From Coriobacteriia bacterium (lineage in GTDB: Bacteria > Actinomycetota > Coriobacteriia > Anaerosomatales > PHET01): a stretch of 64,000 nucleotides of DNA. Location of the stretch: positions 45,525-109,524 of the forward strand of contig DASRYH010000028.1 in NCBI GenBank assembly GCA_035687245.1. The letters run 5' to 3'. The translations under genes were made by a program, and so were the position numbers. The notes below the pieces were generated by a model. The model did not search any database. It worked only from the letters and a program-made list of their open reading frames with translations, and was not told the DNA's origin. Positions 28,593 through 62,323 of this stretch are shown here, in pieces (position 1 is the first letter of the stretch; every line of letters begins with the position of its first letter).

Positions 28593-28594
28593 CC

Positions 28595-37773: not shown

Positions 37774-37828
37774 GTCGACCCTCTTCTCTCGGTGATGGCC
37801 CGAGTCTAGAAGGGGGGTCTGACATCGA

Positions 37829-38632: not shown

Positions 38633-38715
38633 GAAGCATTCCTCTCGAAGTGGTCACATCGGGGGCACACGCCATCGACTAGTATGGTAGTACCCGAGCG
38701 CGTGGAGGTTCTTGC

Positions 38716-39156: not shown

Positions 39157-39177
39157 GACTAGAGCCCGGCGAGATTC

Positions 39178-39552
39178 TTATGCGCACAGCCGGTCGTGGA
39201 ACTCACGCGAGAGCTCTGGCGTCAGCAGGTGCGCCCAACCGCGCGAAACCTCGTCCCATGCATCAGTCGTGCTTCTCCCCGATCGAATGAGATCCTCGAC
39301 CACGCTGTCGACCACAAGGCGAGCGGCGTGCGTGCTGTCACCACCGCGGCGCACCAGCTTGCGACGGATCACACCGCGGTAGTAGGACTCCGCGCGCCTC
39401 TCCAGTCCGAGCGCAGGAGCCTCGCGCAGTGCGCAGCGTGTGGCGGCCACCGCACAACTCACCACGTCGGCCGGCACCTCGCCAGCCTCGAGGCTGCGCC
39501 TACGCAGCTGGGCAAGGGTTCTCTCAAGCGTGTTGCGGGTGTTGTTCTGCAC
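39178..39552 (-). CDS. Hypothetical protein
   Basis: 124-aa ORF with protein-like composition. I recognise no motif. Confidence 0.4.
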   Translation of the reverse strand: MQNNTRNTLERTLAQLRRRSLEAGEVPADVVSCAVAATRCALREAPALGLERRAESYYRGVIRRKLVRRGGDSTHAARLVVDSVVEDLIRSGRSTTDAWDEVSRGWAHLLTPELSREFHDRLCA

Positions 39553-39620
39553 AGTCGGCCTCCTTCACTGCCTGCTTCCACAGCGAAGGTAGGTGACGGC
39601 TCTGACATCTATTGCGGGCG

Positions 39621-40316: not shown

Positions 40317-40370
40317 CCCTTGGACGAAGAACGGCGGGCCGCATTGAGCGACCCGCCGCTTTCAGCCGAA

Positions 40371-40447
<77 letters not shown>

Positions 40448-40533
40448 GCGAGGGGAAATGCTATCACGCCGAACAGCGGCACGCTACAACTTTGTTTTCG
40501 CATTACCCGAGCTGACGCGCCCAGAACAAATGA

Positions 40534-40565
40534 GGAGGCCCGACCGTGTTACCGGCCGGGCCTCC
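40534..40565 (-). terminator. Intrinsic terminator after the 24-haem cytochrome gene
   Basis: GGAGGCCCG...CGGGCCTCC forms a 9-bp stem with extra inner pairs. It is followed on the minus strand by TCATTTGTTCT, 27 nt after the stop. Confidence 0.65.
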
Positions 40566-40591
40566 ACTACGTCTTCCGCAGTCGGCTTCTG

Positions 40592-42787
40592 CTAGTTCAG
40601 CAGGCCCTTCTTGGCGAGGTTGACGTGGCAGTTCGCGCAGAAGGTCGGCTTGTGGCAGCCGAAGCAGCCATCGGTGCCGTTCTTCTTGACGACGTTCGGG
40701 TGGTAGCGGACCCACGGCTTGTCGGCCGGGGCGCCCTCGTGGTGGCACGAGTTACAGAACGCCGTCTTGTGGCAGTTCGAGCAAGTGGACTTGCTCAGCT
40801 TCTTGTCGGCAAAGCTCTTGGCGTGCGCCCCACCGTTGCCGGCGCCCTTGGCTCCGAAGCCATCGGGGTGCGGCATCTCGAGCTTGTGGCAGCTGCTGCA
40901 GAACTTGGCGTTCGGCAGTGCGGCAACTTCGCCCTTGTGGCAGTAGGTGCAGATCTCGCCATTGTCCTTGTAGAGCTGGACGTGCTTCGCGTCCTTGTTG
41001 CTGAAGTCCCTGATGAACTTGGACTGCTTGTGCGACGCCGGAACGACGTTGCGCTTGTTGTGGCACTTCACGCAGTCGTTCTTGGTGTGGCACTTCTCCA
41101 CACAGCCAGCAGCACCATTCTTGTTGACCGAGCCACCGTGGATGCTGATCCACGACTTGCTGGTCGACGAACCAATGTGGTGGCAGTTGCTGCAGACTTC
41201 CTTGAACTGGTGGCACTTCTTGCACTGGCTCGAGTTCTTCTTGCTGCTCACGTGGTTCGTCTTGAAGTCAGCCGGGTGCGGCATCTCAAGCTTGTGGCAG
41301 CTCTTGCAGAAGGCACCGTTGACGCCGCCAGCGTGGCAGACATCGCAGGCCTCGATCGACTTCTGAGCCTCGACGGCGTGCTTGCCGCTGACCTTCGCCG
41401 GCGTCTTGCCGTAGACGGTCATGGCGCCAGGAGCACCAGGCTTGATCCAGCCAGCCTGCTTGTGGGAGGCCGGGAAGACCTTCTTCGAGGTGTGGCAGTC
41501 GGAGCAGAACTTCGCTTCGTGGCACTCAGCAGTACAGGTCTTGATGCCCTTCTCGGCAACAGCCTTCGGGTGCTGCTTCGCGGTCCACGGCTCGGTCGCG
41601 ACGAACTTGTAGCCGCCGGCCTTGGTGCCGTGGTGGCAGTTGTCGCAGAAGTGCGACTCCTCGTTCTTGCCGTGACACATGATGCACTTCTTCGGGAACT
41701 GCTTCGACATTGCAGGGTGGCCCTGCGCCGGATCGGCAGTCGCAGTCGGCTCCTTGAAGGCGGCGGGGTGCGGCATCTCCATACCGTGGCAGCCGTCGCA
41801 GAACTGCTTCTCTACGTGGCATGTGCCGCAGTAGTAGATCGACTCGACCTTCGGCAGCTCGCCGCCGATAGAGTGCATCTCGTCGCCAGGGTTCTTCTTC
41901 TGCTCTTCGAGCAGCGCCTTGACCTCTTCGCGAGCAACGGGCTTCTCTTCTCCGCCACCGGAGGCATAGGCCTTCTCGGTACCCAGAAGGCTCTGCTCCT
42001 TCTCGGCTGCGCCTTCTTCACCCTCGGCGCTCGCCTCAAGAGCCTTGGCGGCCTCTTCCTTGGCCTCCTTCGCCATCTCGGCGTGGCCCTTGGGGTAGAA
42101 GTCCTTCTCGCGGTGATTCTCGGGCTTCAGTTCGAAGTTCGAGGGGTGGCACGCGCTACAGCGACCAGGAGCCGCTGCGCCGTCCTCAAGACCGTGGCAA
42201 CGGAAGCAAGCGGTCATCGAGGTGAAGACCAAGTGCTTCGTGTTGGGCTGCCCGGTCTTCGGATTCGTAAGCGTGAGCTTGAAGTCCTCGGTGTGGGCGA
42301 TACGGTTGTGGCAGACCGGACAGGCCGCGTTAACCTCCGCATGAACGGCGTGATCGATCTTCACGCCCTCAGTCGGGGTGACCTTGCGGGTCTCCATGCT
42401 GTGACACTGGGTGCACTTGTCGCCCGTCATCGTGAGCGCGACCTCGGACTCCCCGTTGAGCGGGAGGTCGTAGTCGTCACGAACGGTCAGGTACAGCTCA
42501 CCCAAGGCCTCAGCCTTGTGCAGGATGAAGATGACCGGGTTCGCGTTGACCGGCATGTGGCAAGCCATACAGCTTACTTTGGCGTGGGACGAGTGTTCAT
42601 AGGCAATGATCGTGTCGTCCTGAACCTTGTGGCAGGCCTCCGCGCAGAACCAACGAGTCGAAGTCACCCCCAATACGGGAACCATGACCCCGGCAATCAC
42701 CAGGACCGCTACTAGCGCCCAGATGATGTACCGTGGCCGCCGGACCGGATCCTTGAATCCGGCCAGGGAGATCTTCGCCATATTCAT
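40592..42787 (-). CDS. Membrane-anchored multihaem cytochrome c (22 CxxCH + 2 CxxxCH motifs); NapC/NirT-like N-terminal module
   Basis: 731-aa ORF with one N-terminal TM helix (YIIWALVAVLVIAGVMVPVLGV). Motifs counted by eye: CAEACH, CMACH, CTQCH, CPVCH, CFRCH, CSACH, an acidic/Lys linker, then 18 more in three modules. Confidence 0.85.
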   Translation of the reverse strand: MNMAKISLAGFKDPVRRPRYIIWALVAVLVIAGVMVPVLGVTSTRWFCAEACHKVQDDTIIAYEHSSHAKVSCMACHMPVNANPVIFILHKAEALGELYLTVRDDYDLPLNGESEVALTMTGDKCTQCHSMETRKVTPTEGVKIDHAVHAEVNAACPVCHNRIAHTEDFKLTLTNPKTGQPNTKHLVFTSMTACFRCHGLEDGAAAPGRCSACHPSNFELKPENHREKDFYPKGHAEMAKEAKEEAAKALEASAEGEEGAAEKEQSLLGTEKAYASGGGEEKPVAREEVKALLEEQKKNPGDEMHSIGGELPKVESIYYCGTCHVEKQFCDGCHGMEMPHPAAFKEPTATADPAQGHPAMSKQFPKKCIMCHGKNEESHFCDNCHHGTKAGGYKFVATEPWTAKQHPKAVAEKGIKTCTAECHEAKFCSDCHTSKKVFPASHKQAGWIKPGAPGAMTVYGKTPAKVSGKHAVEAQKSIEACDVCHAGGVNGAFCKSCHKLEMPHPADFKTNHVSSKKNSSQCKKCHQFKEVCSNCHHIGSSTSKSWISIHGGSVNKNGAAGCVEKCHTKNDCVKCHNKRNVVPASHKQSKFIRDFSNKDAKHVQLYKDNGEICTYCHKGEVAALPNAKFCSSCHKLEMPHPDGFGAKGAGNGGAHAKSFADKKLSKSTCSNCHKTAFCNSCHHEGAPADKPWVRYHPNVVKKNGTDGCFGCHKPTFCANCHVNLAKKGLLN
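40625..41836 (-). repeat. Three tandem intragenic hexahaem modules (about 110-130 aa each)
   Basis: Each module has the pattern CxxCH-x4-9-FCxxCH(K/G)(L/M)EMPHP ... CxxCH-x4-7-CxxCHH ... Cx2-3CH-x4-CxxCH. Modules 1 and 2 are each followed by V(F/V)PASHKQ. Approximate residues are 320-440, 481-588 and 613-721. Confidence 0.8.
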
Positions 42788-42858
42788 CTCTCCTTGCTCT
42801 GCTCGAATCGCCCAGGCATCGTCAAACGACGGTGTTCGCCCTGCACACCATCAGATGA

Positions 42859-42887
42859 AAGATATAAGAACCTGAACGGCGCTACAA
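42859..42887 (-). promoter_or_regulatory. Possible sigma-70-type promoter of the cytochrome gene
   Basis: The minus strand reads TTGTAG-N17-TATCTT in the only AT-rich patch of the 144-nt gap upstream of the cytochrome start. Confidence 0.3.
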
Positions 42888-42931
42888 CAGAAACGAACCT
42901 TCTCACTCCGAGAGTTCGACGAGCAGATGGA

Positions 42932-44074
42932 TCATCCTGCCACGTCTGAGAGCTCGAGTAAGGCCGTTTCCAAGCGCCCAGCAGCTGCCGAAGACGTGTC
43001 GGAGAGCGTGAGCAACTCGTCTGCGATACCCGACAGCTGCTCCACTTCCCCGGTCTGAAGTCGCGACAGATGCGCTGTTTCGGCGGCTGCCGTTGCGGCA
43101 GTCGAACAGGTGTCGGCGACTTCGGCGAGCTGAGATGCGGTGCGCATCACGATCTCGCGCGACTCATCAACCATGAGGCGCATGCGCTCGGTCGACCCCA
43201 CCAGCGCGACCGCGCCCGACTGGAGTTCGTGGACAACGCGGCTGATTTCGGAGGTCGACTCGGTCACCGACTCCGCGAGATTGCGGATCTCTTCAGCGAC
43301 AACGGCGAATCCGCGGCCCGCGTCGCCCGCGCGCACCGCCTCAATCGAGGCGTTCAGTGCAAGTATCTTCGTCTGCTCGGCGATATCGTCGATGATCTCG
43401 AGCACTCCGCCAATGCGCTGGCCGTCGTAGCCGAATCGCTCAACGCGGTCGGCGGCATCACTCGAGTGGCGACCGATGCTCGCAAGGGTCACCGACGCTT
43501 CATCGATGAGCTGAACGGCGCGGCGGGAGTCTTCTCCGGCCCGCTCCGACGCCTCAAAGGCCTGGCCGGCGTTCTCCAGCACGTTGACCGCATTGTGCGC
43601 GAGTATCTCGGTCTCACGCCTCAGCCGCTCGTTCGTGTTGGCCTGCCGCTTCGTAGCACCTGCGGACTCGTCGGCGGTATGGCACAGTTCAGAAGCCCGC
43701 GCTCGCAGCATGCCGGAGCGCGACTGTGATTCGTCGAGGGTCACGCGCGCGAGATCGAACATGCGGCCAGCGCGCTGGAGCGCACGTTCGTCTCCGGTGG
43801 CGGCCGGGGCGCGCATTCTAAGCCGGGTCTCGGCGTCCTCCAGGACGCTCGCGCAGGCGTCTTCGCCGATTCTGTCACCGAACCATGCGACGGCCAGACC
43901 AGCACCCGCACCCATGCCTACGAACAACGTCGCGAGGACGATCGAGGCAACGACACTGCGCGGCGTCGTCAGCAGGCTCGCAAAGACCCACATCGCGACG
44001 CCTGCGGCAACGCCGATGCCGACTGCGTTGAAACGCAGCCGACCGCGCTCTTGCCACCAGTTGCTTGCAGTCAC
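42932..44074 (-). CDS. Methyl-accepting chemotaxis-type signalling protein with two TM helices and almost no outside loop
   Basis: C-terminal MCP signalling domain ([36 protein letters not shown]). I place the start at GTG 44074 (GAAGGG upstream). The longest ORF (to 44620) would run through the divergent promoter and the opposite-strand genes. Confidence 0.72.
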
Positions 44075-44192
44075 GTACCGACCCTTCAGGACACGGTGCG
44101 ATCTCAGCTTCAGCCGCGCGCGGGCACCCTTCCGTACCGCGACCCTTGATAAGACACTACGGTAGGGGTATCGGCCAATTACTTGCACGTTA

Positions 44193-44210
44193 TATACCCC
44201 TTGGGGTATA
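44193..44210. promoter_or_regulatory. Perfect palindrome TATACCCC-TT-GGGGTATA (operator candidate)
   Basis: 8-bp perfect inverted arms, 42 nt upstream of ATG 44252, in the divergent MCP / ferredoxin-operon intergenic region. Confidence 0.55.
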
Positions 44211-44251
44211 GTCAGCGAGCTCGGTTCGTCAAAGGAAGGAACTCCCGCATC

Positions 44252-44455
44252 ATGTCTGTCGTCACTATCGACACCGCCCGCTGCGATCGCTCGCCCGGTT
44301 GCCCGTCTCGCCGAATCTGCCCGACAGGCGCTATTGTGCCGATCGACGGCGGTGCCTACCCCGGTGCGAACGGGTACACGGTCATCGAAGAGAAGTGCTC
44401 CGGTTGTGCTGTCTGCGTGCGTGTGTGCGCGGGTGGCGCGTGCCGGATCGGATAG
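44252..44455 (+). CDS. Small Cys-rich 4Fe-4S ferredoxin-like protein
   Basis: [29 protein letters not shown]...[25 protein letters not shown] after AAGGAAGG. The second cluster motif is CxxCxxCxxxC. Confidence 0.6.
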
Positions 44456-44467
44456 AAGGAGCAGTTG

Positions 44468-44812
44468 ATGCCTAAGCCCGTCATCGTCGAGGTCTTCGAC
44501 GTTCCCTCCGCCTCCGACTGCTTCTCGGGTGGATGAGGCCCGTCCTGGTCTCCGGAGGAGATCACGGCCATCGTCCGCACCGAGCTTGAGCGCCGCTATG
44601 GTGACGACGCCCAAGTCCACTACTACAACACGCAGGATGACTCGGTTCGGCAGCAGTACGCCGCGCTGATCACTGAGATCGACGAGCGCGGCCTGCTCTA
44701 CCCCGTCACCGTCGTCGACGGCGTGCCCGTCTACGACGGCGCCGTGAGCTACCCGGCCATCATGCGCGCGGTCAACAACAAGCTGCTTGAACAGGAACAG
44801 ACCGCCAAGTAG
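44468..44812 (+). CDS. Candidate selenoprotein: ArsD-like thioredoxin-fold protein with in-frame TGA (codon 23)
   Basis: Not in the ORF track. ATG 44468 lies 6 nt after GAAGGAG. My translation: [114 protein letters not shown]. The TGA is at 44534-44536, and the frame stays open for 91 further codons with protein-like sequence. Confidence 0.6.
44537..44569 (+). promoter_or_regulatory. Candidate bacterial SECIS hairpin
   Basis: Starts directly after the TGA. Lower stem GGCC/GGCC (44537-40 with 44566-69). Upper 8-bp stem TGGTCTCC/GGAGATCA (44546-53 with 44557-64). G-rich apical loop GGA about 17-20 nt after UGA. Confidence 0.5.
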
Positions 44813-44839
44813 TACGCCGTTTGGGCTACACTTCGCCCT

Positions 44840-45985
44840 ATGCCGAGAGTCTCGCTTTCACGCTGCGCCGACTACTCCCCCGCACTCGTTGCCTCTTCGC
44901 TTGCCGAAGTGCTCGAGCCGCTGGGCGGTATGTCGGCCTTCGTGTCTCCCGGGCAGCGCGTACTGCTCAAGGTGAACCTGCTGTCGCGCGCGCTGCCTGA
45001 AAGGGCGGTCACCACCCACCCGGAGGTCGTACGCGCCCTTATCCGCGAAGTGAGGGCCTGTGGGGGCATACCCACAGTGGGTGACAGTCCCGGCGGCCCG
45101 AACAGTGTCGGCATGGTGAAGCGGGTGTGGGCGGACAGCGGTATCGGCAGTGTCTGCGCCGAAGAGAACGTGGAGCTGGTGCTCTTCGACGATGACGTCC
45201 TGCGCGTGCCCGCTCCTGACGCAACCCTCTACGGCTCCTTCAGCTTGGGACGCGCCGTCGTCGAGACAGACGTGCTCATCTGCGTGCCGAAGTTCAAGAC
45301 GCACGGCTTCATGATGTTCACGGGCGCGGTGAAGAACCTCTTCGGCTGCATACCGGGCCTTGAGAAGGCGCAGTACCACATCAAGGTGCCGGAGCGTGAC
45401 GACTTCGCCGACATGCTTCTCGACCTCATGCTCGCCTGCAAACCAGCGCTTTCTGTAATGGATGCAGTCGTCGGCATGGAGGGTGAGGGTCCCGCCGGGG
45501 GCAAGCCGAAGGCCGTTGGCGCGCTCATCGCTTCGGCGGACGCATGTGCGCTGGACCTGGTCGCATCATCGATGGCCGGCCTGGCGCCAGACGAGGTCTA
45601 CACGGTGAAGATGGCCGCGAAGCGCGGTATGTGCACAGACGATGTCGATGCCGTTGAGATCGCCGGTGCCGACTGGCGCGATCTTGCGCCCGACAGCTTC
45701 GAACTCCCCGCGGTGGACCTGTCCCGCAAGATGCCGCCGTGGCTGGGGAACCGGCTGCGCTCTTGGCTGACCGCCAAGCCGGTGCTGGAGAACAAGCCCG
45801 GCTGCACTCGCTGCAAGACCTGCCAAGACGTGTGCCCGGTCGATGCGATCGTAGTGACTGAAGATGGCCCGCAGTTCGACCGCGCCAAGTGCATCCGCTG
45901 CTACTGCTGCCAGGAGCTGTGTCCGCCGCAGGTCATCGGGCTGTCGGTGCCGCTTGTGGCCCGCGCGCTCTCCAAGCGCCGCTAG
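44840..45985 (+). CDS. DUF362-domain protein with C-terminal 2x[4Fe-4S] ferredoxin domain
   Basis: 381-aa ORF. N-terminal DUF362-like part (VLLKVNLLS...HPEVVRALI...GDSPGG). C-terminus [12 protein letters not shown]...[12 protein letters not shown]. Confidence 0.75.
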
Positions 45986-46001
45986 CCGAACCAGGTCTTT
46001 C

Positions 46002-46304
46002 TCAGTCGAGTTCGCGCCACCAGTCGACGAACATCCCCACGAGTCCCCGGTCCATGAAGACCTCCCACGCTGACTCTCCCTCGTGTGCCTTCGGCAGCGT
46101 GGCGTCGTAGGCGCGCCGGCGTCCGGGGTCGGACAGCACCTCGTAGGCGGCGTTGATGCGCTGCATGTCGGCCGTCGCGCGCTGGTGATCCTCGGCCGGA
46201 CGACGGTCGGGATGGTACTTGCGCACGAGCGCCTTGTAGGCGCGCTCCACGACCTCGGGCTCGGCGTCGCGCGTGACCTGTAGTGTTCGGTAGTGGTCGG
46301 GCAT
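46002..46304 (-). CDS. J-domain-only protein
   Basis: 100-aa ORF DHYRTLQVTRDAEPEVVERAYKALVRKYHPDR...INAAYEVLSDPGRRRAYD, containing the HPD motif. Confidence 0.75.
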   Translation of the reverse strand: MPDHYRTLQVTRDAEPEVVERAYKALVRKYHPDRRPAEDHQRATADMQRINAAYEVLSDPGRRRAYDATLPKAHEGESAWEVFMDRGLVGMFVDWWRELD

Positions 46305-46313
46305 CGCAGTCCC

Positions 46314-47222
46314 CTAAGACGGCGCTGGCTGCTGTGCGAAGCGCTCACCGAGCTCGGCGGCGACCACGCCCGCAAAGACGAAGCCGGCTCCCACGAACTG
46401 CAGCGGAGTCAGACGCTCGCCAAGCAACCAAGCAGCAAGCGCGATCGTGAAGAGCGGCTCGAAGGTCGAGACGACGGCCGCCTGCGAAGGGCCAAGCTTC
46501 TGAATGCCCTCCAGGTACAGAGTAATGGCGGCAAAGGTCGGAATGAGCACGATGAGGATGAGCAGCCACCACGCCTTCACCGACCAGCCGGCCGGTGAGA
46601 GCGACGCGGGCCCGTCCAGCACGATCGTGCCGACTACCGGCAGGATGACCGCGATGCCGAAGGTGTAGGCCATCATCGCGAAACGCGAGCGGCCCTCCAT
46701 CCAGCGGCTCGAGAGCAGATTGAAGAGCGTGTAGCCGACCGCGGCACCCAGGCCGAGCGCAATGCCTTGCCATTTGGCGTGCATGTCGCCGCTCCCCAAC
46801 CCAACCACCAGTGCGCAGCCGATGAACGTCATGACGACGGCAAGGCCCTGTTGCCAGCGCGCCTTGTGCCCGAGAAACAGCCAGCCGGCGATCGTGACCA
46901 GCGCAGGGTACGCGTAGAGAAGCACCGCGACGACCGACGCATCGGCGAAGCGAAGTGCGAAGAAGAAGCAGACGGAAGCGGCACCGTAGCCGGTCAGCGC
47001 GAGGATCGCGAAGCGACCGATATCTTGCCGAGTCACGAGCAGCGCACGCCTGTCGCGGACGGTGGCGACCACCGCGAGAAGCGTCGCGGCGATCACGAAA
47101 CGCCACGCCAGCAAGGGTAGCGGGCTTGCACCCTCCTTGTAGGCGAGCGGCGTGAGTACCGCGAGCGTGCCGAAGCATGCAGCGGAGACGATGACGGAGA
47201 TCAGTGACCAGCGGCGTTGCAC
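46314..47222 (-). CDS. EamA/DMT-family transporter
   Basis: 10-TM profile with two EamA-like halves. I chose the GTG start at 47222 (VQRRWSLISVIV...); the longest ORF starts at 47270. Confidence 0.78.
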   Translation of the reverse strand: MQRRWSLISVIVSAACFGTLAVLTPLAYKEGASPLPLLAWRFVIAATLLAVVATVRDRRALLVTRQDIGRFAILALTGYGAASVCFFFALRFADASVVAVLLYAYPALVTIAGWLFLGHKARWQQGLAVVMTFIGCALVVGLGSGDMHAKWQGIALGLGAAVGYTLFNLLSSRWMEGRSRFAMMAYTFGIAVILPVVGTIVLDGPASLSPAGWSVKAWWLLILIVLIPTFAAITLYLEGIQKLGPSQAAVVSTFEPLFTIALAAWLLGERLTPLQFVGAGFVFAGVVAAELGERFAQQPAPS

Positions 47223-47322
47223 GTGCGAGCTCCCTTTGTCCAAGTCGGTTTCACAACGTCCCATTCGCAAAGGCGCACGTCAACCGTGCTAGACTCGCGC
47301 ATCGCACAGGAAGGAGCCGCGG

Positions 47323-47709
47323 ATGACTCGAGGGAAGTTGATCAGGTGGGGCGCTGTGGCCCTGTGGGCAGCCGCCATCTTCGGCGCGTCGTCGATCCAA
47401 GGCTCGAACCTACCCAGCGGATACTCCGTGCCGGCGCACTTCGCCGAGTACCTGATACTCGCGGTGCTCCTCTACACTGCCCTGCGCCCGGGGCGCTCAC
47501 GTGCGTCAGCCGCACTCCTCGCGCTGTCCATGGCTTCGCTCTACGGGATGAGTGACGAGCTCCACCAGTACTTCACGCCCGGGCGGGTGCCGGACCCGAT
47601 GGACTGGCTCACCGACACGCTCGGTGCGAGCGCCGGCGTGCTGGCGGCGTGCGTCGTAGAGCCCCTTCTTGCGAAGTGGCGCGCGAAGCGAAAGCGCGAG
47701 ACTCAGTAG
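47323..47709 (+). CDS. VanZ-like membrane protein
   Basis: 128-aa ORF with four TM segments and the motif SDELHQYFTPGR...DWLTDTLGA. Confidence 0.65.
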   Translation: MTRGKLIRWGAVALWAAAIFGASSIQGSNLPSGYSVPAHFAEYLILAVLLYTALRPGRSRASAALLALSMASLYGMSDELHQYFTPGRVPDPMDWLTDTLGASAGVLAACVVEPLLAKWRAKRKRETQ

Positions 47710-48806
47710 ACGCCGCTCTGGGCAGCAGTGCTCTCGTCGAGCGCCAGGTGGCGCACCTTGATCTTGAAGTCGTGCGCGTTGGCCGACATCGCGATCGCGT
47801 CGTCGAGAGTGATCTTGTGCGCCGCGTAGAGCTCCAGCAGCGACTGGTCGAAGGTCTGCATGCCGTAGTACTGGCCCTCTTCCATCGCGTCCCGGATCAG
47901 GTAGGTCTTCTCCGGGTCATTGATGTACTCGCGGATCGTACCGGTCACAACCAGCACCTCGACTGCGGGAACGAGTCCGCCCTGGATCGACGGGATCAGG
48001 CGCATCGAGATGATGCCCTTGAGCGTCGAGGCAAGCATGAGGCGAACCTGCTTCTGCTGGTGCGGCGGGTAGAAGTCGATGATGCGGTTGATCGTCTCAG
48101 TGGCGTCGATCGTGTGAAGCGTGGATAGAACGAGGTTGCCGATCTCGGCTGCGGTTATTGCCGCGGCGACCGTCTCGTAGTCGCGCATCTCGCCGATGAG
48201 AATGACATCGGGGTCCTGGCGGACGACATGGCGAAGCGCCTCGGGGTAGCTCTCGGTATCGATCCCGATCTCACGCTGGTTGATGATGCACTTCACGTCG
48301 TGGTGAAGGACTTCGATTGGGTCCTCGATCGTGATGATGTGGCCTTCGCGCGTGTTGTTGATGTGGTCGATCATCGCGGCAAGGGTCGTGGTCTTGCCGG
48401 AACCGGCGGTACCCGTGACGAGCACGAGTCCACGGGGTTCGTCGGCCAGCCCCCGGATGACCGCGGGCAGGCCGAGGTCGTCGAAGGAGCGAGTGCCGGC
48501 GACAACGTGGCGAATCGTCATGCCGACGCTGCCGCGCTGACGAAAGACGTTGAAGCGGAAGCGGCCCACGCCGGGAAGCGAGTACGCGAAGTCAGTCTCA
48601 CGCGTCGAGTCGAGATGCACCTTCTGCATGTCGTCCATGACGCCGCGGGCGAGTACGGCCGTCTGCTCACACGTAAGCGGTGCGATCTCTTTGAGCAGAA
48701 CCAGCTTGCCGTTGACGCGAATCGCAGGCGGGCTGCCGACCTTCAGGTGCAGGTCGGACGCGCTACGTTCGATCATCAACTTGAGCAGCCCATCGATCTG
48801 AGCCAC
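47703..48806 (-). CDS. pilT: Type IV pilus retraction ATPase PilT
   Basis: VAQIDGLLKLMIERSASDLHL...VTGTAGSGKTTTLAAMI...ILIGEMRD...TLHT. GTG start at 48806 after GGGGAGG. The convergent 7-nt overlap with the VanZ-like gene is seen in the coordinates. Confidence 0.9.
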   Translation of the reverse strand: MAQIDGLLKLMIERSASDLHLKVGSPPAIRVNGKLVLLKEIAPLTCEQTAVLARGVMDDMQKVHLDSTRETDFAYSLPGVGRFRFNVFRQRGSVGMTIRHVVAGTRSFDDLGLPAVIRGLADEPRGLVLVTGTAGSGKTTTLAAMIDHINNTREGHIITIEDPIEVLHHDVKCIINQREIGIDTESYPEALRHVVRQDPDVILIGEMRDYETVAAAITAAEIGNLVLSTLHTIDATETINRIIDFYPPHQQKQVRLMLASTLKGIISMRLIPSIQGGLVPAVEVLVVTGTIREYINDPEKTYLIRDAMEEGQYYGMQTFDQSLLELYAAHKITLDDAIAMSANAHDFKIKVRHLALDESTAAQSGVY

Positions 48807-48925
48807 AACGCCTCCCCAACAACGAGTCCTCGGTCTCTCACACGTCAAAGTCCGCACGCCGGAGCGTGTCTAAGAGGGATATCGACGTGTGGAGCCCAAG
48901 ACTGTAGCAACAGCCTCGTTCGTCC

Positions 48926-49978
48926 CTAGGGGCGGCAAGCTCCTGCGTAGTTGGAGTGCAGCGGGTCGATTCGGACCCGCGCGCCCGTGTGAGGTGCGTG
49001 AATCATCATTCCACCGCCGACATAGATGCCGACGTGGTGAATGGGTGAGCCGAAGAAGACGAGGTCGCCCGCGCGCAGGTTGGAGCGGCTGACCCGTTCG
49101 CCATAGTGAATCTGCGCTCGAGAGCTATGGGGCAACCTCACACCCACCTGGCGGTAGACGAACATGGTGAGACCCGAGCAGTCGAAGCGGTTCGGCCCTG
49201 CTGCTGCCCAGCGGTACGGCGCGCCAAGATAGCGACGCGCAACCGAGACCACGGCGGTGCGCGGAGCTCGAGTGGGCGGCGGGAAGGTGCGCTCGGAGCG
49301 CGCCGGTGTGCGCACTTCGCGGCGTGCGCGAGCCGCACGGGCCCGTCGCTCAGACGCCTCGATGGCCGCGATTTGGGACTCGATGCCCCGCAGCTTCGAC
49401 TGGCGCTTGGCGAGCTGAGAGCGGATCGAGTTGCGATTCTGCTTCATGACCGCGACCTGATGGGCTGCGGACTTCTCTTTGGCACTGATCTCGGCCGTGT
49501 CCTTCTTGGCCTGCGCCTTGAGGGTCCTTAGCTCTGATACCGCCTTGGCGTCGCTGTCGTTGAGGTCGCGCAGGATGTTCCACGTAGTGGCGAAGTCCTC
49601 GTAGGTCCTCGAACCGAGCAGGACCTGCACGAAGCCCATCTTGCCGTCCCGATACATGTCGCGCGCCCGGGTCCCCAAGTGCGTCTGCACGACGCCCATC
49701 CGCTTGGTGACCTTCTTCAGGTGCGACTTCGCCTTGCGCTGCTGCGCACGAACGCGGGCATGCTTCGACCGCGCCTCTGAATAGCGTTCGGAGGCGCGCT
49801 CAACACGCTCGTCGAGCTTGTCGATCTCTGCTTTGACACGGCGGGCCTGAGCGTACTTGCTGCTCGGCACGGCACCGGCCGGAGTTGATGAGACAGCTAT
49901 GGCGACGGTAAGAATCGCAGTCGCAACTGATCTCCGTAGGGTAGTCAGTTCGTTGCCTCCCTGGCACACCGACGGCAT
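48926..49978 (-). CDS. Secreted NlpC/P60 peptidoglycan endopeptidase with N-terminal coiled coil
   Basis: 350-aa ORF with a signal peptide, a long Lys/Arg/Ala-rich coiled coil, and a C-terminus FDCSGLTMFVYRQVGVRLPHSS...HVGIYVGGGMMIHAP. Confidence 0.85.
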   Translation of the reverse strand: MPSVCQGGNELTTLRRSVATAILTVAIAVSSTPAGAVPSSKYAQARRVKAEIDKLDERVERASERYSEARSKHARVRAQQRKAKSHLKKVTKRMGVVQTHLGTRARDMYRDGKMGFVQVLLGSRTYEDFATTWNILRDLNDSDAKAVSELRTLKAQAKKDTAEISAKEKSAAHQVAVMKQNRNSIRSQLAKRQSKLRGIESQIAAIEASERRARAARARREVRTPARSERTFPPPTRAPRTAVVSVARRYLGAPYRWAAAGPNRFDCSGLTMFVYRQVGVRLPHSSRAQIHYGERVSRSNLRAGDLVFFGSPIHHVGIYVGGGMMIHAPHTGARVRIDPLHSNYAGACRP

Positions 49979-50023
49979 GACACTCCGAGGAGTTTAACAT
50001 GCCCTTTCGGACGGTCTGGGCTT

Positions 50024-56981: not shown

Positions 56982-57051
56982 GGACGTTCACCTGCTCTCT
57001 TATCTAGCTGGCCGGACATCAAGCGTACAACGTCGGCCGCGCGAATGGGGC

Positions 57052-57093
57052 TTCGAAAAGCGGGGGCCCCGGGCTCGTTGCCCGGGACCCCCC
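57052..57093 (-). terminator. Intrinsic terminator closing the hydrogenase-cytochrome operon
   Basis: The minus strand reads GGGGGGTCCCGGGC-AACGA-GCCCGGGGCCCCC followed by GCTTTTCGAA, 44 nt after the cytochrome stop. Confidence 0.7.
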
Positions 57094-57136
57094 TTGTGCT
57101 GCAATCGTGCGTTGCCGCTAAGCGGAGTCGAAACCC

Positions 57137-58447
57137 CTACTTGTCGTGGCAGCGCTCGCACACGCCGCGGTTGTCGGCACGGAGCAGAGCACTGGTGCCC
57201 TGGAGGCCGGCGGTTGCGGGATCGTCGTCCTTGTCAGGATCCACGCCAGCGATACCGTCACGCACGGGAACCCAAGTTCCTTCGGCGTTCTGGGTAAGGG
57301 AGGCAGCGGCCCAACCGTTCATGACGGCGGCAGAACCGTGAGCGTAGTGGCAGGTGAGGCAGCCAACCTGATTCTGGCGATTCGAGGCAGCGCCAGGAGT
57401 GACCTCCAGCGGCACGTGCTGGTCGAGGTTGCCATCAGCCTGAGCTGCAACCTGCAGGACGTCATCGCCCTGAACGAGCGTGATGTCGACCGGGTGACGG
57501 TGGCGAGGCTGCGAGCCGACAAGGCCAGCGCCCTCGTTCGTACCGTAGTCGTAGTTGCCGGTCTGGTTGTCGTACTGCTCGTGGCACGCAGCACACCAGG
57601 TCGACAGGGAGCCGACGCCGCCAACATAGGGGTTATCCATGCTGGAACGGATCTGCGAGCTACCCGAGGTGTAGTTCGGGACGTAGGCCTGCATCTGAGC
57701 CTGGCCGTCAGCGTGCTTCAGCCAACCGTTGTCCGAGTACGGGTAGTTGGTCTCAGTCGAGTAGACCATACCGTTCGGGGTGCCGTCGGGGTTGTAGCCA
57801 CCGACTGCGGTGTTGTTGACCGAGTCCTTCAGGAGGCGGTAGTTCGAGCTGCCGTGAGGATCGTGGCAGCTGGTGCAGGTCAGGTACAGCGAGTTGCCGG
57901 TCGTGGTGTTGCCAGCGCCCCACAGGATGCCCGTCTTCTCCATGGAGTGCGTGGAGGTGACGCCTGTGAGTGCCGGAGCCGCGTCGACTTCCCACTCGCC
58001 CAGCGTGCCCTTGTACATCGTCGAGAAACCGCCGCCGTTCAGCGGAGCGCCGAACGTGGAGCTCGTGACGTACGCGGTCGTGACGCCATCGTTGGTCGGG
58101 CCAACCTGGCCAGCGTAGCTGGAGGGGCCGCCATCGAAGATGCCCTCGACAACGTTCGTGGATGCGCCAGGAGCGTTGTCGCCGTGGCAAGCGTCACAGA
58201 ACTCCTGCATGGTGGCGGCGTCGCCGACCAGCAGGGCAGACGGGTTGTCTGCAGGGTCCCAGCCCGGAGGAGTGATCCTCGGGGTGAACGTCACGGACGA
58301 GAACGAGCTGTGAGCGCGGTGACAACCGGCGCAGGAGTCCGTGTCATCGATGTATCCGCCGTGCGGACCGAAGTTCGCGTACGCGGAGCCAACGACGGCG
58401 AGGGACAGCGCCAATACGAGCGTAAGTACTAGAACGAAACGCTTCAA
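57137..58447 (-). CDS. Secreted hexahaem cytochrome c, OmcS-like motif pattern
   Basis: TTG start at 58447 (RBS GGAGGTG, 17 nt after the large-subunit stop) gives signal peptide MKRFVLVLTLVLALSLAVVGSAYA-N. Six CxxCH motifs: CAGCHRAH, CDACH, CTSCHDPHG, WCAACH, CLTCHYAHGS, CERCHDK*. Confidence 0.85.
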   Translation of the reverse strand: MKRFVLVLTLVLALSLAVVGSAYANFGPHGGYIDDTDSCAGCHRAHSSFSSVTFTPRITPPGWDPADNPSALLVGDAATMQEFCDACHGDNAPGASTNVVEGIFDGGPSSYAGQVGPTNDGVTTAYVTSSTFGAPLNGGGFSTMYKGTLGEWEVDAAPALTGVTSTHSMEKTGILWGAGNTTTGNSLYLTCTSCHDPHGSSNYRLLKDSVNNTAVGGYNPDGTPNGMVYSTETNYPYSDNGWLKHADGQAQMQAYVPNYTSGSSQIRSSMDNPYVGGVGSLSTWCAACHEQYDNQTGNYDYGTNEGAGLVGSQPRHRHPVDITLVQGDDVLQVAAQADGNLDQHVPLEVTPGAASNRQNQVGCLTCHYAHGSAAVMNGWAAASLTQNAEGTWVPVRDGIAGVDPDKDDDPATAGLQGTSALLRADNRGVCERCHDK

Positions 58448-58464: not shown

Positions 58465-60537
58465 TTAGTGGATCGCGCAAGCGATGCAGGGGTCAAAGGA
58501 CTGGGCGATACGAGCGACCTCGACGCCACCGACGGTGGGGATGGACGCGCCACCCTGACCGGTGATGGTCTTGGTGTAAGTCGCACCCGTCGCGAACGGG
58601 GCACCGATGCATGCCTTCTCGATTGCACCATTCTGGCCAAGAACGTCCTTCGGCGAACCGTTCCACGTGGTGGGAACGATGCACTGATAGGCGGTGATCT
58701 TGCCGTTGTTGATGGTGATCTGGTGCATCAGGGAGCCACGCGGAGCCTGGCCTGCGCCCCAACCCTTCTTGATGCCGGTCGGGATCGACTTGTTGGCCCA
58801 GGTGGAACCAACGGTGTCGTTGGCGTTGACGCCAGCACCCGTGTAGGACTTGAGCTGGTTGATCCAGCTGCTGCTACCGAAGGACAGCGTGCCCAGAGGA
58901 GTCACGCTACCGTCGGACTTGCTGATCTTGCCAATCATGCGCTGGACGAGCACGAAGGACTGCAGGGCGCGAGCGCGCAGGCGGTCCATCGTGGACAGGC
59001 CGGCCTGGATGCCGAGGACCCAAGTCTGGATCGCGGCGACAAGACCCATGCCGTCGGCGCCGAACGGATACGCAACCGGGTCGACTCCGAAGAGGAACTT
59101 GCCCGAGTTCACGATGCCGTTGACGATCGTCGGAGCGATGATGTCGAGGTCGAGACCGCCAGCCTTGACGTAGAGGTCATAGCCCGAGACGGTAGCCGAC
59201 GTCGGGATGCTGGTGGCGAGATCGACGCCATCCTGGAAGTAGCCGTTGACGAACATGTCAGCCATGGGACCGACCTCGCAGGGCTTGCCAGCCCAGCGCG
59301 GGGCCTTCATGTAGCTGTAGCCGTCGTCACGAGCCGGCTTGGTGCGAGTGATGTCACCAGGATAGGTGGCCTCGGCACCAGCGAACGGACGAGATGCGGT
59401 CGTCGCATAGACGGCAGCGTCGTCGACGTACGGCACGTAGCGCGAGTTGGAGATGTCCTCAGTGAGGTTCGTCGGGACAGAGAGCGCGCCCGACAGGAAC
59501 TTGCTGATGACTTCGCCCTTATTCGCGACCGTGAAGTTGTACACGCCTGCAGGAGCACCAAGCTCGAGCACGCCGCCCTTGATGGCGAGATCGTCGTTGA
59601 GCTCAGGGAACTGACCCCAGACGAGGAAGCGGCCAAGACCAGCGCCGAAGCCGACGGGATCGCCGGGGGTGTAGAAGAAGCTGCGGGTCTTGTTGTGATC
59701 GTTGTCGAAGCCCGGATACAGGAAGCCGAGGACCAGAGCGATCGGCACGTACTCGTTGACGATGAACTTGCCGACTTCCTGGATGATCTCCTCGTACTTG
59801 TTGCAACGCTGAGTCAGGTTCTCCGTGCCATCGTTGGTGACGCCGCCACCGACGAAGCAGGAGGTCATCGGCATACGACCGGCGAACAGCGCGCCAGCCT
59901 CGAAGGTGAGGCGGCGAATGCGCAGTGCGCGAACGTAGCTGATGATGACCGCGTCCCAGATCTGCATGGTAGCCGTGTTGGCAACCGGCACAACGCCAGC
60001 GGTAGCGCTGACGGTGTCAGCCGAGAACGAGCTGCGCAGAACGGGGTTGTAGAAGGCTTCCGCGAAATACGGAGTCCAAGGCGGCATGTTCGGGCCCTGA
60101 ACGTAGCTCGGGGCAGCCAGGTGATAGAAGTGCGTGATGCTCGACATCAGGAACTCGGCCGAAAGGACGAGGTTACGGATGAGCAGAGCCTTCGGCGGAA
60201 TGCCGTAGGGGCTGCCAACCGCTTCGTTCAGAGTCGAGAACGTGATGTGAGAGCGGCTGTAGCCGAGAACAGAGTCGACCGCGTACGTCGAGGTCAGACC
60301 GTGCGGGACCGGGCAGACACCGCAGATGCGCTGCACGAAAGTGATCGCATCGTTGGCGCCACGGCCAAGCAGGAAGTTCTCGAAACCACGCCACAGGTTA
60401 CCGTGGGCGTTGGCGTCCTTGATGAAACCGTCAGAGCCAACTCGGACCTTGACTCCCAGGTGACCCTCGATACGAGAGACCGGGTCGACCTCGCGGTCCG
60501 TCGAGCCAGCGACGGTGTTGAGATTCCATACACTCAT
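58465..60537 (-). CDS. [NiFe]-hydrogenase large subunit
   Basis: 690-aa ORF with N-terminal motif RICGVCPVPH. The C-terminal DPCIACAIH is followed directly by the stop. Confidence 0.95.
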   Translation of the reverse strand: MSVWNLNTVAGSTDREVDPVSRIEGHLGVKVRVGSDGFIKDANAHGNLWRGFENFLLGRGANDAITFVQRICGVCPVPHGLTSTYAVDSVLGYSRSHITFSTLNEAVGSPYGIPPKALLIRNLVLSAEFLMSSITHFYHLAAPSYVQGPNMPPWTPYFAEAFYNPVLRSSFSADTVSATAGVVPVANTATMQIWDAVIISYVRALRIRRLTFEAGALFAGRMPMTSCFVGGGVTNDGTENLTQRCNKYEEIIQEVGKFIVNEYVPIALVLGFLYPGFDNDHNKTRSFFYTPGDPVGFGAGLGRFLVWGQFPELNDDLAIKGGVLELGAPAGVYNFTVANKGEVISKFLSGALSVPTNLTEDISNSRYVPYVDDAAVYATTASRPFAGAEATYPGDITRTKPARDDGYSYMKAPRWAGKPCEVGPMADMFVNGYFQDGVDLATSIPTSATVSGYDLYVKAGGLDLDIIAPTIVNGIVNSGKFLFGVDPVAYPFGADGMGLVAAIQTWVLGIQAGLSTMDRLRARALQSFVLVQRMIGKISKSDGSVTPLGTLSFGSSSWINQLKSYTGAGVNANDTVGSTWANKSIPTGIKKGWGAGQAPRGSLMHQITINNGKITAYQCIVPTTWNGSPKDVLGQNGAIEKACIGAPFATGATYTKTITGQGGASIPTVGGVEVARIAQSFDPCIACAIH

Positions 60538-60561
60538 GTGGTTTTGCCTCCTCTCTTCTTC

Positions 60562-61857
60562 TTAGCGCTTCACGAAGGGCACGAACGCGTCCGGATAGCC
60601 CTTCTCGGTGCATGCCATGCAGGGGTAGCCAGCGACGGTGCAGTGACCGCCGACGCCGTTCTTGTTCAGACCGGACAGCGTACCCGCGTTCTCCGGCTGC
60701 TGGTTGTTCCAACCATGCTTGCCGCAGAGAGAGCTAGCCGTGATGCCCTTGCAGCCGATCTTCTGCAGGCAGCCCGGATCGCCCGGCTTGAGGGCGTAGA
60801 TGCCCTTGGTGTAGCTCGGGTAGCGCGGACAGAAAGCTCCGTGAACCGTACCCGGGTAGACGCGCTTGACGCGACGACCGGCGTCGAGCTCGATGAGGTC
60901 GGTGCCGGCGAGCTTCAGCATGACCATGACGGTGGTGAGAACGAACCACCACGGGTTGGTCGGGCAGCCCGGGACATTGATGACCTTGGCAGCTGCGGCG
61001 TTGACGTCCGCAACAAAGGCGGCCTTCAGCGGATCAGCGTCAGCGTACTGCGACAGGAAGTCGTAAGCACCCTGGGCGCCGGTCTGCGACAGAGCGGGAT
61101 CGAAGCCCCCGAGGCCCTTCTTTGCGGTCGTGGCGCTGATCTGGGGCTTGCAGCCCGGATAGCCACCGTAGCAAGCGCACTGGCCGATCGGGAGGATCGC
61201 AGCGCACTCAGGCATGGCGGCGAGGTCGGCGACGACCTCCGGCATGTCCTGCTCGTGCGAACCGTCGTCGAAGACGCCGATGGAGCACCACGGCGTCGTG
61301 CCGGTGTTGCCCCACGCGCCACCCTGACGGGCATCCTGCATGGCACCCTCGATGACGAGCACGAACGGATCGTTGCTGCCGGTCGAGTAGGTGTCACGGA
61401 AGTCCTGGAGCCACTTGGCGGCGAGGTCGCCCGCCGGGCCCATGACGGTCTCGTGATACTGAAGGTCGATGACGTCGATGACGACGTCAGCGATGTTGAC
61501 CAGAGCACCGTCGGCACGAAGACCGCCGGTGAGGGTCGGGAAAGCGCCGCCAAGGGCGTTGGTTACGCCGGCAAGCCCGAGGGCGGTACCGGTGTCGATC
61601 CCAGCGACGGTAGCGTTGCTGTCATAGCGGAACGGCTTGCCACTGGCATCCTCGAGGATACCCAGCAGAGACGTGGAGCAGCCCGTGCACTCCGCGCCGT
61701 GAATCCATACGACCTTGGGCTTGCCGAAGGTTCCGCCGTAAGCGTTCGAATTGCCCGCAAACGCATCGGCGATCTTAGTTACCTCGACCTGGCTAAAGCC
61801 AACGGCGGTAGCCAGCGCTCCCAAGCGCGTTACGAACTGACGCCTGGTAATGGCCAT
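60562..61857 (-). CDS. [NiFe]-hydrogenase small subunit with twin-arginine signal
   Basis: 431-aa ORF with MAITRRQFVTRLGALATAVGFS..., WIHGAECTGCS (proximal cluster) and the C-terminal GYPCMACTEKGYPD. There is no C-terminal TM helix. Confidence 0.95.
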   Translation of the reverse strand: MAITRRQFVTRLGALATAVGFSQVEVTKIADAFAGNSNAYGGTFGKPKVVWIHGAECTGCSTSLLGILEDASGKPFRYDSNATVAGIDTGTALGLAGVTNALGGAFPTLTGGLRADGALVNIADVVIDVIDLQYHETVMGPAGDLAAKWLQDFRDTYSTGSNDPFVLVIEGAMQDARQGGAWGNTGTTPWCSIGVFDDGSHEQDMPEVVADLAAMPECAAILPIGQCACYGGYPGCKPQISATTAKKGLGGFDPALSQTGAQGAYDFLSQYADADPLKAAFVADVNAAAAKVINVPGCPTNPWWFVLTTVMVMLKLAGTDLIELDAGRRVKRVYPGTVHGAFCPRYPSYTKGIYALKPGDPGCLQKIGCKGITASSLCGKHGWNNQQPENAGTLSGLNKNGVGGHCTVAGYPCMACTEKGYPDAFVPFVKR

Positions 61858-62196
61858 ACTCTCTCCTCCTTCACGTGCATCGATGAACCTACTTACTAGC
61901 TGGACTTACAAAACTACACTCACGGAACTCCACGCACTTTCAGGCGAAAAAACGGAAAACGCCACCTCCTCTCGGCCCGCGTGAGCGGAGAACCGGAATG
62001 GAGGCGGCGCACAAATTCGAGAATGCTGGCAGGGACCCGGTACGCAGGAAGTGGTACGAAACAGGCTGCGAATTGCTTGAATGGGGGTCATCCGACCAAG
62101 CGGGTCTTCGTGCCGGCTCCAACCCGGAAGGTCTACTGTTTCGGTACCCCTCCTTCATTGGGTACTTCAAGCGCTGTAGAAGCGCACATGACAGTT

Positions 62197-62214
62197 TTGT
62201 AACAGGAGTTACAA
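62197..62214. promoter_or_regulatory. Candidate Rex operator in the hydrogenase leader
   Basis: TTGTAAC-AGGA-GTTACAA is a perfect 7-bp inverted repeat with a 4-nt spacer, 340 nt upstream of the small-subunit start. It shares half-sites with 34628..34645. Confidence 0.45.
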
Positions 62215-62261
62215 ATGGGACTGTAAGCCCTGTGAAGGTGCTCGTCAAGCACAATTGGCGT

Positions 62262-62298
62262 GGTTGGTGCCACCCGATCAACTCGGGTGGCACCAACC
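62262..62298 (-). terminator. 16-bp perfect hairpin after the NHL-repeat gene
   Basis: GGTTGGTGCCACCCGA-TCAAC-TCGGGTGGCACCAACC, 26 nt after the stop at 62324. It has no clear U-tract. Confidence 0.6.
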
Positions 62299-62323
62299 AG
62301 GTGCTGCCAACGTTGCACGGCAC

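Follow-up and report, generated by a model that had tools for sequence, protein, structure and literature searches.

What is a cytochrome of the OmcS family doing in the hydrogenase operon of a bacterium that has no outer membrane? OmcS filaments are the best-known case of protein-based long-range electron transport and have so far been tied to Gram-negative bacteria of the Geobacter type. The question is raised by a 64,000-nucleotide stretch of a Coriobacteriia genome (contig DASRYH010000028.1; the whole stretch is called the window below), for which an earlier reading of the bare DNA, here the original prediction, had noted a hexahaem cytochrome c gene with the motif pattern of OmcS, the nanowire cytochrome of Geobacter sulfurreducens. 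We read the locus as encoding a secreted OmcS-family cytochrome, produced as the third cistron of an operon with a hydrogenase exported by the twin-arginine (Tat) route, which would accept the electrons of this enzyme and self-associate as a hydrogenase-charged haem wire; we give this reading a probability of about 0.6. What is observed directly is the homology, the conserved ligand set, the layout of the operon, the secretion signals and a synteny that recurs in many genomes.

A secreted hexahaem cytochrome homologous to OmcS

The open reading frame of the cytochrome, as delimited by an ORF finder, extends to position 58480 (447 aa), and residues are numbered here on this longer frame; the actual start is a TTG at 58447..58445. 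The TAA stop of the preceding gene, hydL, is followed by CGAC, a GGAGGTG Shine-Dalgarno sequence, six nucleotides and this TTG, which lies 17 nucleotides past the hydL stop. The Shine-Dalgarno sequence and its spacing identify the TTG as the true start, so that 57137..58447 is the real gene, and the NCBI protein model P0001 (436 aa) is 100% identical to its product. The signal peptide and the mature N-terminus align with the OmcS signal peptide and the FHSGG that follows it (hhalign); there is no lipobox and no hydrophobic segment other than the signal peptide. The mature protein, of 412 residues, contains fifteen histidines and exactly six CxxCH motifs (CAGCH, CDACH, CTSCH, CAACH, CLTCH and CERCH), and is rich in Gly (12.9%), Ala (9.7%), Thr (9.0%), Ser (8.0%), Asp (7.8%) and Asn (6.3%). 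The original prediction had placed the gene correctly and had described a protein of about 436 aa with a Sec signal, six CxxCH motifs and a Gly/Thr/Asn-rich, low-helix sequence, from a GC-rich, Gram-positive-type host; all of this is seen, the host being a GC-rich, monoderm-type bacterium represented by a Coriobacteriia metagenome-assembled genome (MAG).

In comparisons with OmcS, the sequence of PDB 6EF8_A served as reference. BLASTP aligns residues 50-447 collinearly with OmcS 9-406 over 398 residues (E 1e-13, 26% identity), with all six CxxCH motifs in register. A profile of the cytochrome family, built from 34 homologues, finds 6EF8_A as its sole significant match in the PDB (E 2.7e-14), and profile-profile comparison by hhalign with an OmcS family of 26 sequences yields a probability of 99.5% (E 2.6e-23), with an alignment of 319 columns that begins in the signal peptide and reaches haem 5. 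A single-sequence phmmer search of the PDB chains left OmcS unmatched; it was set aside, since BLASTP, the family profile and the profile-profile comparison all detect OmcS. The motif pairings that the original prediction had listed one to one are all reproduced: FGPHGG with FHSGG, CAGCHRAH with CEGCHTMH, CTSCHDPHG with CSSCHDPHG, WCAACH with WCANCH, RHRHP with LRHP, CLTCHYAH with CLSCHRAH, and the terminal CERCHDK with CNKCHAKD, each before its stop codon. The alignment that it had proposed as a check returns significant similarity, and the motifs it gave for OmcS were right. As judged from these comparisons, there is hardly any room for doubt that the window cytochrome is a real, if distant, homologue of OmcS, at about 25% identity.

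Among Pfam families, the best for the cytochrome is Paired_CXXCH_1; Cytochrom_c3_2 reaches 29.5 bits against a cutoff of 25 bits, with no single domain passing, and the classic c3 family, Cytochrom_CIII, is unmatched. A first AlphaFold model, from 34 close homologues, was discarded at a pLDDT of 47.6. The model from the 150-sequence alignment described below has a pLDDT of 71.3 and a pTM of 0.77, with low confidence at both termini and few helices; in Foldseek it finds no match, by a method that reportedly fails on folds of the OmcS type. The family profile also shows a weak match (E 0.046) to chain N of PDB 9YUQ, a 'putative multihaem cytochrome c' of 218 aa deposited with 16 chains, around the motifs CHDPHG and CLTCHRAHG; the 9YUQ protein may likewise form a cytochrome filament and contain a related haem-pair module.

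Conservation of the haem motifs and the further histidines

The six haem motifs are kept far beyond chance, since 115 of 117 full-length homologues retain all of them. In a MAFFT alignment of 150 sequences from three subfamilies (hydrogenase-linked, formate-dehydrogenase-linked and OmcS proper), where the actinobacterial groups share a mean identity of 24-25% with OmcS, the invariant residues comprise the haem motifs and H40, H57, H178, H209 and H381, which correspond to H2, H16, H110, H147 and H335 of OmcS. To these is added H329, invariant in both actinobacterial subfamilies and paired with OmcS H257 by BLASTP and hhalign, not by MAFFT. Together with the six proximal histidines, the six further ones make up just the number required for six bis-His haems.

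The signature of the family combines CxxCHxxH at haems 1, 3 and 5 with a histidine placed 6-14 residues ahead of haem 1 and with haem 6 near the C-terminus. Among six-haem members, the extra histidine is present at haem 1 in 403/403, at haem 3 in 402/403 and at haem 5 in 403/403, and haem 6 lies at most 4 residues from the C-terminus in 391/403. At haem 1 the motif is likewise complete in each of three groups (115/115, 117/117 and 114/114) and in the diverse representatives (57/57). Its extra histidine, H57, which the original prediction had singled out as conserved, proves invariant, being kept in all 150 aligned sequences as well as in all six-haem members. Both OmcS and OmcE close one haem with a histidine of the neighbouring subunit (trans-ligation). 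In OmcS this ligand is presumably His16, the last residue of CEGCHTMH, binding haem 5, with the residue number to be taken as provisional.

The cytochrome gene closes a hydrogenase operon

The two genes ahead of the cytochrome gene, hydS and hydL, encode the small and large subunits of a [NiFe]-hydrogenase with the motifs of the group 1, periplasmic type (RIEGH, QRICGVCPVPH and DPCIACAIH in the large subunit, RRQFV in the small one), with Fe-S domains and with matches in Pfam and NCBIfam. The RRQFV of HydS is a twin-arginine signal, with a marginal match to TAT_signal_seq (15.1 bits against a cutoff of 16.7 bits). HydS has no hydrophobic segment, and hence no C-terminal membrane anchor; HydL is likewise unanchored, and the operon contains no cytochrome b gene. 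In soluble periplasmic [NiFeSe] hydrogenases the electron acceptor is the multihaem cytochrome c3. The closest solved structures are precisely of periplasmic [NiFeSe] enzymes, 4KL8, 1CC1 and 2WPN for HydL, and 1CC1_S and 4KL8_S for HydS. The absence of an anchor and of a cytochrome b, together with these nearest relatives, argues for a multihaem cytochrome as acceptor, and it is quite probable that the hydrogenase passes its electrons to the OmcS-like protein as a dedicated partner.

The cytochrome gene is the third and last cistron of hydS-hydL-cyt, which has no internal terminator. Tight spacing, a 3' hairpin and an upstream promoter-like region of its own define the transcription unit; the hairpin past the cytochrome gene folds with -53.5 kcal/mol (z -5.6 against shuffled sequences). 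The placement of the cytochrome within a hydrogenase operon, as originally predicted, is borne out by the Pfam matches, the spacing, the Shine-Dalgarno sequence and the terminator-like hairpin.

Some properties of the enzyme stand apart. HydL terminates at the histidine of DPCIACAIH (58465..58491, minus strand), as do 41 of the 44 orthologues that have the motif; it therefore has no C-terminal extension, the part that a maturation protease removes, and the operon holds no maturation endopeptidase gene, which is unusual for group-1 enzymes. Both subunits (58465..61857) are far longer than their nearest solved relatives, 431 vs 283 aa for the small one and 690 vs about 499 aa for the large one, and phmmer aligns them only in separate blocks, which indicates large insertions; these are possibly docking surfaces. 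An identity with the group 1i, 'Coriobacteriia-type' hydrogenase was considered and rejected, since 1i has a cytochrome b and a protease and the window operon has neither.

Conservation of the arrangement across Actinomycetota

The arrangement was followed through a synteny scan with one genome per species, which covered 433 loci encoding relatives of the cytochrome, in a superfamily of 699 clusters at E <= 0.001 (library at 50% identity). The best 80 of the 433 loci all belong to MAGs of Actinomycetota, labelled for instance as Coriobacteriia, Anaerosomatales, Actinomycetes or Thermoleophilia. Loci were counted as orthologous at 39% identity or more with enough flanking DNA, which leaves about 48 that are informative; the adjacency hydS-hydL-cyt is found in at least 43 of these, and five are without it. 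In these loci the conserved block runs in the order NHL-repeat protein, HydS, HydL, cytochrome, an uncharacterised protein of 450 aa, TPR-like protein and surface protein, and it recurs in three long metagenome contigs.

The cytochrome could in principle be a general component of extracellular electron transfer that lies beside the hydrogenase without functional meaning. Orthologue-level copies away from a hydrogenase do occur (loci L019, L022 and L040-L042 of the scan), two of them directly behind the gene of a protein of about 1940 aa with ten CxxCH motifs (L040:1078-8233 and L041:1155-8281). Against this stand the retention of the adjacency in at least 43 species-level genomes at protein identities of only 40-60%, the apparent transcriptional and translational coupling of the genes, and the parallel arrangements with other enzymes described below; a meaningless adjacency is thus extremely improbable.

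The same cytochromes behind formate dehydrogenase and a second hydrogenase

Paralogues with 35-38% identity to the window cytochrome (37% in L067) have no hydrogenase beside them and occupy the same position behind a formate dehydrogenase. These modules run in the order NHL-repeat protein, molybdopterin enzyme with a Tat signal, 4Fe-4S subunit and OmcS-like hexahaem cytochrome. The gene of the molybdopterin enzyme is interrupted by an in-frame TGA, behind which comes HSSTVAGLGRTFGRGAMTNNW, the motif that marks selenocysteine in formate dehydrogenases (in L067 the TGA lies at 3046-3048). In a third context, the cytochrome accompanies a second type of hydrogenase, 30% identical to that of the window (L072 and L073). 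One cluster (L072:38-12121) combines this second hydrogenase type, the cytochrome and a selenocysteine formate dehydrogenase, with a 14-haem cytochrome ahead of them. From these several enzyme contexts, OmcS-like hexahaem cytochromes emerge as a modular output unit that these bacteria combine with exported oxidoreductases.

Electron flow and self-association

In the mechanism that we propose, H2 would be split at the Ni-Fe site outside the cytoplasmic membrane, and the electrons would cross the small subunit by way of its three Fe-S clusters and leave from the distal one to the hexahaem cytochrome, to be passed onward; the cytochrome would thus fill the place that cytochrome b or cytochrome c3 takes in other group-1 hydrogenases. 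That electrons flow in this direction, we infer. The cytochrome would then associate head-to-tail with itself, as OmcS does, to form a haem wire charged by the hydrogenase. Self-association is suggested by the invariance of the trans-ligand histidine and the location of haems 1 and 6 at the extreme termini; by the fact that enzyme and cytochrome are both unanchored in a cell without outer membrane; and by the constant presence, beside the module, of NHL and TPR proteins anchored in the membrane. Physiology speaks for the reading as a whole: Anaerosomatales in culture can use H2 or formate for growth, together with Fe(III), sulfur or thiosulfate (PMC9686372), and in an anode biofilm the genome that ranked fourth in abundance was a Coriobacteriales MAG encoding an OmcS homologue (PMC7399161).

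Several points weigh against a wire. The tricistronic operon implies roughly equal amounts of enzyme and cytochrome, which is easier to reconcile with a stable third subunit than with a homopolymer of great length. Were H2 oxidised and Fe(III) reduced on the outside of the membrane alike, no proton-motive force would result. The assignment of the six further histidines as the distal ligands of OmcS is drawn from conservation, not from coordinates. Finally, BLASTP of the window cluster against the Geobacter locus, with its osc genes for assembly and secretion, returns similarity at the level of the NHL repeats only, so that an osc system is not claimed here; a monoderm would not be expected to have parts for secretion through an outer membrane.

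The cytochrome might accordingly be a dedicated redox partner or third hydrogenase subunit that does not polymerise, an analogue of Desulfovibrio cytochrome c3 or FdhC3 that passes electrons to other multihaem cytochromes or to a quinone-reducing complex in the membrane, its extra histidine being at most a dimer contact. A third cistron with tight spacing and no internal terminator would be as expected for such a subunit, as would the same slot behind formate dehydrogenase and the closeness of the hydrogenase to periplasmic enzymes that reduce cytochrome c3; the multihaem cytochrome of 541 aa conserved upstream in related loci (three metagenome contigs) could be the next carrier, and for energy conservation the electrons must re-enter the membrane. 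A monomer with the haem chain of OmcS would, however, leave haem 5 without a sixth ligand, yet the trans-ligand histidine is kept without exception in the six-haem members; the haem-bearing termini are preserved exactly as in polymerising OmcS; and an unanchored cytochrome with an unanchored hydrogenase would need a scaffold in a monoderm. We therefore consider a purely non-polymerising partner unlikely, while still deserving attention.

The module could also run in reverse, with the cytochrome, polymerised or not, taking electrons from Fe(0), a cathode, reduced minerals or a syntrophic partner, and the exported hydrogenase or formate dehydrogenase releasing H2 or formate. The two enzymes with an OmcS-like partner are both reversible, and extracellular hydrogenase and formate dehydrogenase are the two enzymes known for electron uptake at surfaces, from work on Methanococcus. 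The midpoint potentials reported for bis-His haems of the OmcS type lie well above the H+/H2 couple, so that H2 evolution would be uphill; the OmcS midpoint has moreover been placed 82 mV above earlier belief (Portela et al., 2024; PMC10954620), and cultured relatives consume H2 and formate (PMC9686372). Reverse operation is for these reasons quite improbable.

Returning to the wire, we hold OmcS-like polymerisation of the window cytochrome tentatively, at somewhat less than even odds. A shade more tentative is a general form of the proposal, by which in monoderm Actinomycetota an exported hydrogenase and an exported formate dehydrogenase would each dock on an OmcS-type homopolymer of their own, which would cross the thick wall to minerals, electrodes or partner cells and would be charged directly by the enzyme.

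Relation to known systems

The likeness to OmcS of G. sulfurreducens (GSU2504; PDB 6EF8 and 6NEF) extends to most of the protein: mature lengths of 412 and 407 residues; a common order of the six CxxCH motifs and the same six extra histidines, with CxxCHxxH at haems 1, 3 and 5; a mature N-terminus of the form F-x-H-G-G ahead of haem 1 and haem 6 at the extreme C-terminus; a loop-rich sequence high in Gly, Thr and Asn; and an NHL-repeat protein encoded alongside. In contrast to Geobacter, the window host is a monoderm actinobacterium with neither outer membrane nor osc secretion genes; the window gene ends a hydrogenase operon, where omcS adjoins omcT and osc genes; and the window protein has RHRHP in place of LRHP and lacks His63 of the OmcS family. 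Filaments have been seen for OmcS, whereas the window protein is known from sequence. OmcE shares trans-His ligation and haem stacking with OmcS, so the principle is not unique to the latter; in the PDB profile search, OmcE, OmcZ and the archaeal tetrahaem filaments show no similarity to the window family.

With the periplasmic [NiFe] and [NiFeSe] hydrogenases of Desulfovibrio and their cytochrome c3, and with FdhABC3, the module shares a Tat-exported enzyme without anchor, a multihaem c-type cytochrome in place of a membrane cytochrome b, and the duplication of this logic for formate dehydrogenase. It differs in that its cytochrome is not of the c3 fold, being an OmcS homologue three to four times larger, in the large insertions of both hydrogenase subunits, and in a host without a periplasm bounded by an outer membrane. 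The group 1i hydrogenase of Anaerosomatales isolates (PMC9686372) comes from the same lineage and has a role in H2 uptake for anaerobic respiration; its cluster encodes a cytochrome b subunit and a maturation protease, in contrast to the window operon, which has the OmcS-like cytochrome instead. These first isolates of the order, with 17-18 multihaem cytochromes, were described without a report of OmcS (PMC9686372).

An OmcS homologue has been noted in this class of organisms before: Arbour et al. 2020 (PMC7399161) mention in one sentence that an anode-enriched MAG, 'S27 BJP Coriobacteriales', encodes one with 28% identity and six CxxCH motifs. It is the same kind of protein and very probably belongs to the family of the window cytochrome; that account, in contrast to the present one, includes no gene context, no hydrogenase and no formate dehydrogenase. 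Hernsdorf et al. 2017 tied related Actinobacteria to H2 use and multihaem cytochromes, counting only cytochromes with ten or more haems, and Portela et al. 2024 (PMC10954620), who found that the periplasmic PpcA-E charge OmcS, listed homologues from RefSeq proteobacterial-type organisms only. A full-text literature search for OmcS and Coriobacteriia together returned nothing, and we found no description of an operon link between an OmcS-like cytochrome and an enzyme in the literature, with a prior mention in Shen et al. 2025 being possible. The original prediction, which knew of no such combination, has to be tempered in this respect: the operon link was found in no paper, but an OmcS homologue in Coriobacteriales is already on record. 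What is new here is an OmcS-family cytochrome hard-wired to an exported hydrogenase and an exported formate dehydrogenase in monoderm Actinomycetota.

Subsurface Actinomycetota of the Gram-positive type thus have a large sister family of OmcS within their operons for hydrogenase and formate dehydrogenase. If its members polymerise, they show how a wall-enclosed monoderm wires H2 or formate oxidation outward, by a minimal three-gene module of enzyme plus wire that is of bioelectrochemical interest. If the enzymes dock on homopolymers as proposed, the result would be an enzyme-powered nanowire that needs neither a periplasmic shuttle nor an outer-membrane conduit, and it would point to an evolutionary origin of OmcS nanowires in the cytochrome subunits of extracytoplasmic dehydrogenases, or to evolution in the opposite sense. 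If they do not polymerise, the OmcS architecture, including its trans-acting histidine, also serves in enzyme-bound electron-transfer subunits, which bears equally on the evolution of nanowires. Both outcomes can be tested, as related Anaerosomatales with the growth on H2 or formate described above are in culture.

Neighbouring genes and the region upstream of hydS

The coordinates of the locus are collected in Table 1. The NHL-repeat protein always stands beside the module of enzyme and OmcS-like cytochrome. In Geobacter, the NHL-repeat protein GSU2505 adjoins omcS and has been proposed to be needed for OmcS assembly or expression (PMC9070056); the window protein resembles it at the level of the repeats (BLASTP E 4e-4; profile comparison with a probability of 95.7 over 110 columns). 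The acidic protein is always encoded 3' of the hydrogenase-linked cytochrome gene; it has no relative in Pfam, NCBIfam or the PDB, also when searched with a profile of 21 sequences, and is probably cytoplasmic, since it has neither signal peptide nor hydrophobic segment. In the paralogous cluster, the counterpart of the surface protein bears CWB2 wall-binding domains. Positions 1..50000 of the window hold an ordinary core (rpoB, rpoC, the genes for ribosomal proteins L10 and L1, nusG, cysS, ispD, disA and six tRNA genes), so that the cluster is not on an obvious mobile element.

Table 1. Features of the hydrogenase-cytochrome locus (window positions) and of the related formate-dehydrogenase module (positions in its own locus).
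Feature	Position	Strand	Remarks
OmcS-family hexahaem cytochrome c gene	57137..58447	minus	precursor 436 aa, mature 412 aa; stop included
Sec-type signal peptide MKRFVLVLTLVLALSLAVVGSAYA	58376..58447	minus	cut before NFGPHGG; read from sequence
Haem 1, CAGCHRAH	58310..58333	minus	extra His is H57 in 447-aa numbering, H22 mature
Haem 2, CDACH	58184..58198	minus	
Haem 3, CTSCHDPH	57854..57877	minus	OmcS: CSSCHDPH
Haem 4, (W)CAACH	57581..57595	minus	OmcS: WCANCH
Haem 5, CLTCHYAH	57338..57361	minus	OmcS: CLSCHRAH
Haem 6, CERCH	57146..57160	minus	2 residues before stop; OmcS: CNKCHAKD-stop
[NiFe]-hydrogenase large subunit (HydL), 690 aa	58465..60537	minus	Pfam NiFeSe_Hases, E 1.3e-69
[NiFe]-hydrogenase small subunit (HydS), 431 aa	60562..61857	minus	Pfam Oxidored_q6 and NiFe_hyd_SSU_C
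GC-rich hairpin (13 bp), then CUUUUCG	57050..57095	minus	intrinsic-terminator-like operon end, directly after cytochrome gene
Acidic protein, 448 aa	55635..56981	minus	N-terminal Y..LGL.ANPF motif; directly downstream of operon, syntenic
TPR-like/Gly-Ser-rich protein, 281 aa	54780..55625	minus	N-terminally anchored; conserved downstream; relatives in formate-dehydrogenase module
Secreted Ig-like-domain surface protein, 756 aa	52493..54763	minus	conserved cluster end
NHL-repeat beta-propeller protein, 503 aa	62324..63835	minus	N-terminal transmembrane anchor; NCBIfam/NHL matches
Non-coding control region, 466 nt	61858..62323	minus	upstream of hydS
Promoter-like site	62220..62248	minus	
Conserved palindrome TTGTAACTCCTGTTACAA	62197..62214	minus	just downstream of promoter-like site
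Conserved leader element CCGGGTTGGAGCCGGCACGAAGACCCG	62093..62127	minus	can pair with GCCGCCTCCATTCC (61995..62008)
Formate-dehydrogenase module	L067:2326-8083		also in L056-L071 and L074-L085

In the region upstream of hydS, a perfect 17-bp inverted repeat, GGTTGGTGCCACCCGA ... TCGGGTGGCACCAACC (62258..62301, minus strand), lies right past the stop of the NHL gene and is probably the terminator of that gene; a weak Rfam match of the repeat to mir-652 is spurious. The palindrome has a core, TGTAAC-N4-GTTACA, that is kept upstream of hydS in at least 12 orthologous loci of different species, and is probably the operator for a regulator of the hydrogenase-cytochrome operon. The leader element keeps an identity of 90-100% over more than 20 loci, where the proteins share only 45-60%. 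Rfam has no family for it; in RNAalifold it pairs with a conserved stretch further downstream, GCCnCCUCC, similar to an anti-Shine-Dalgarno sequence, without covariation, as both sides are invariant, and it may represent a new cis-regulatory RNA.

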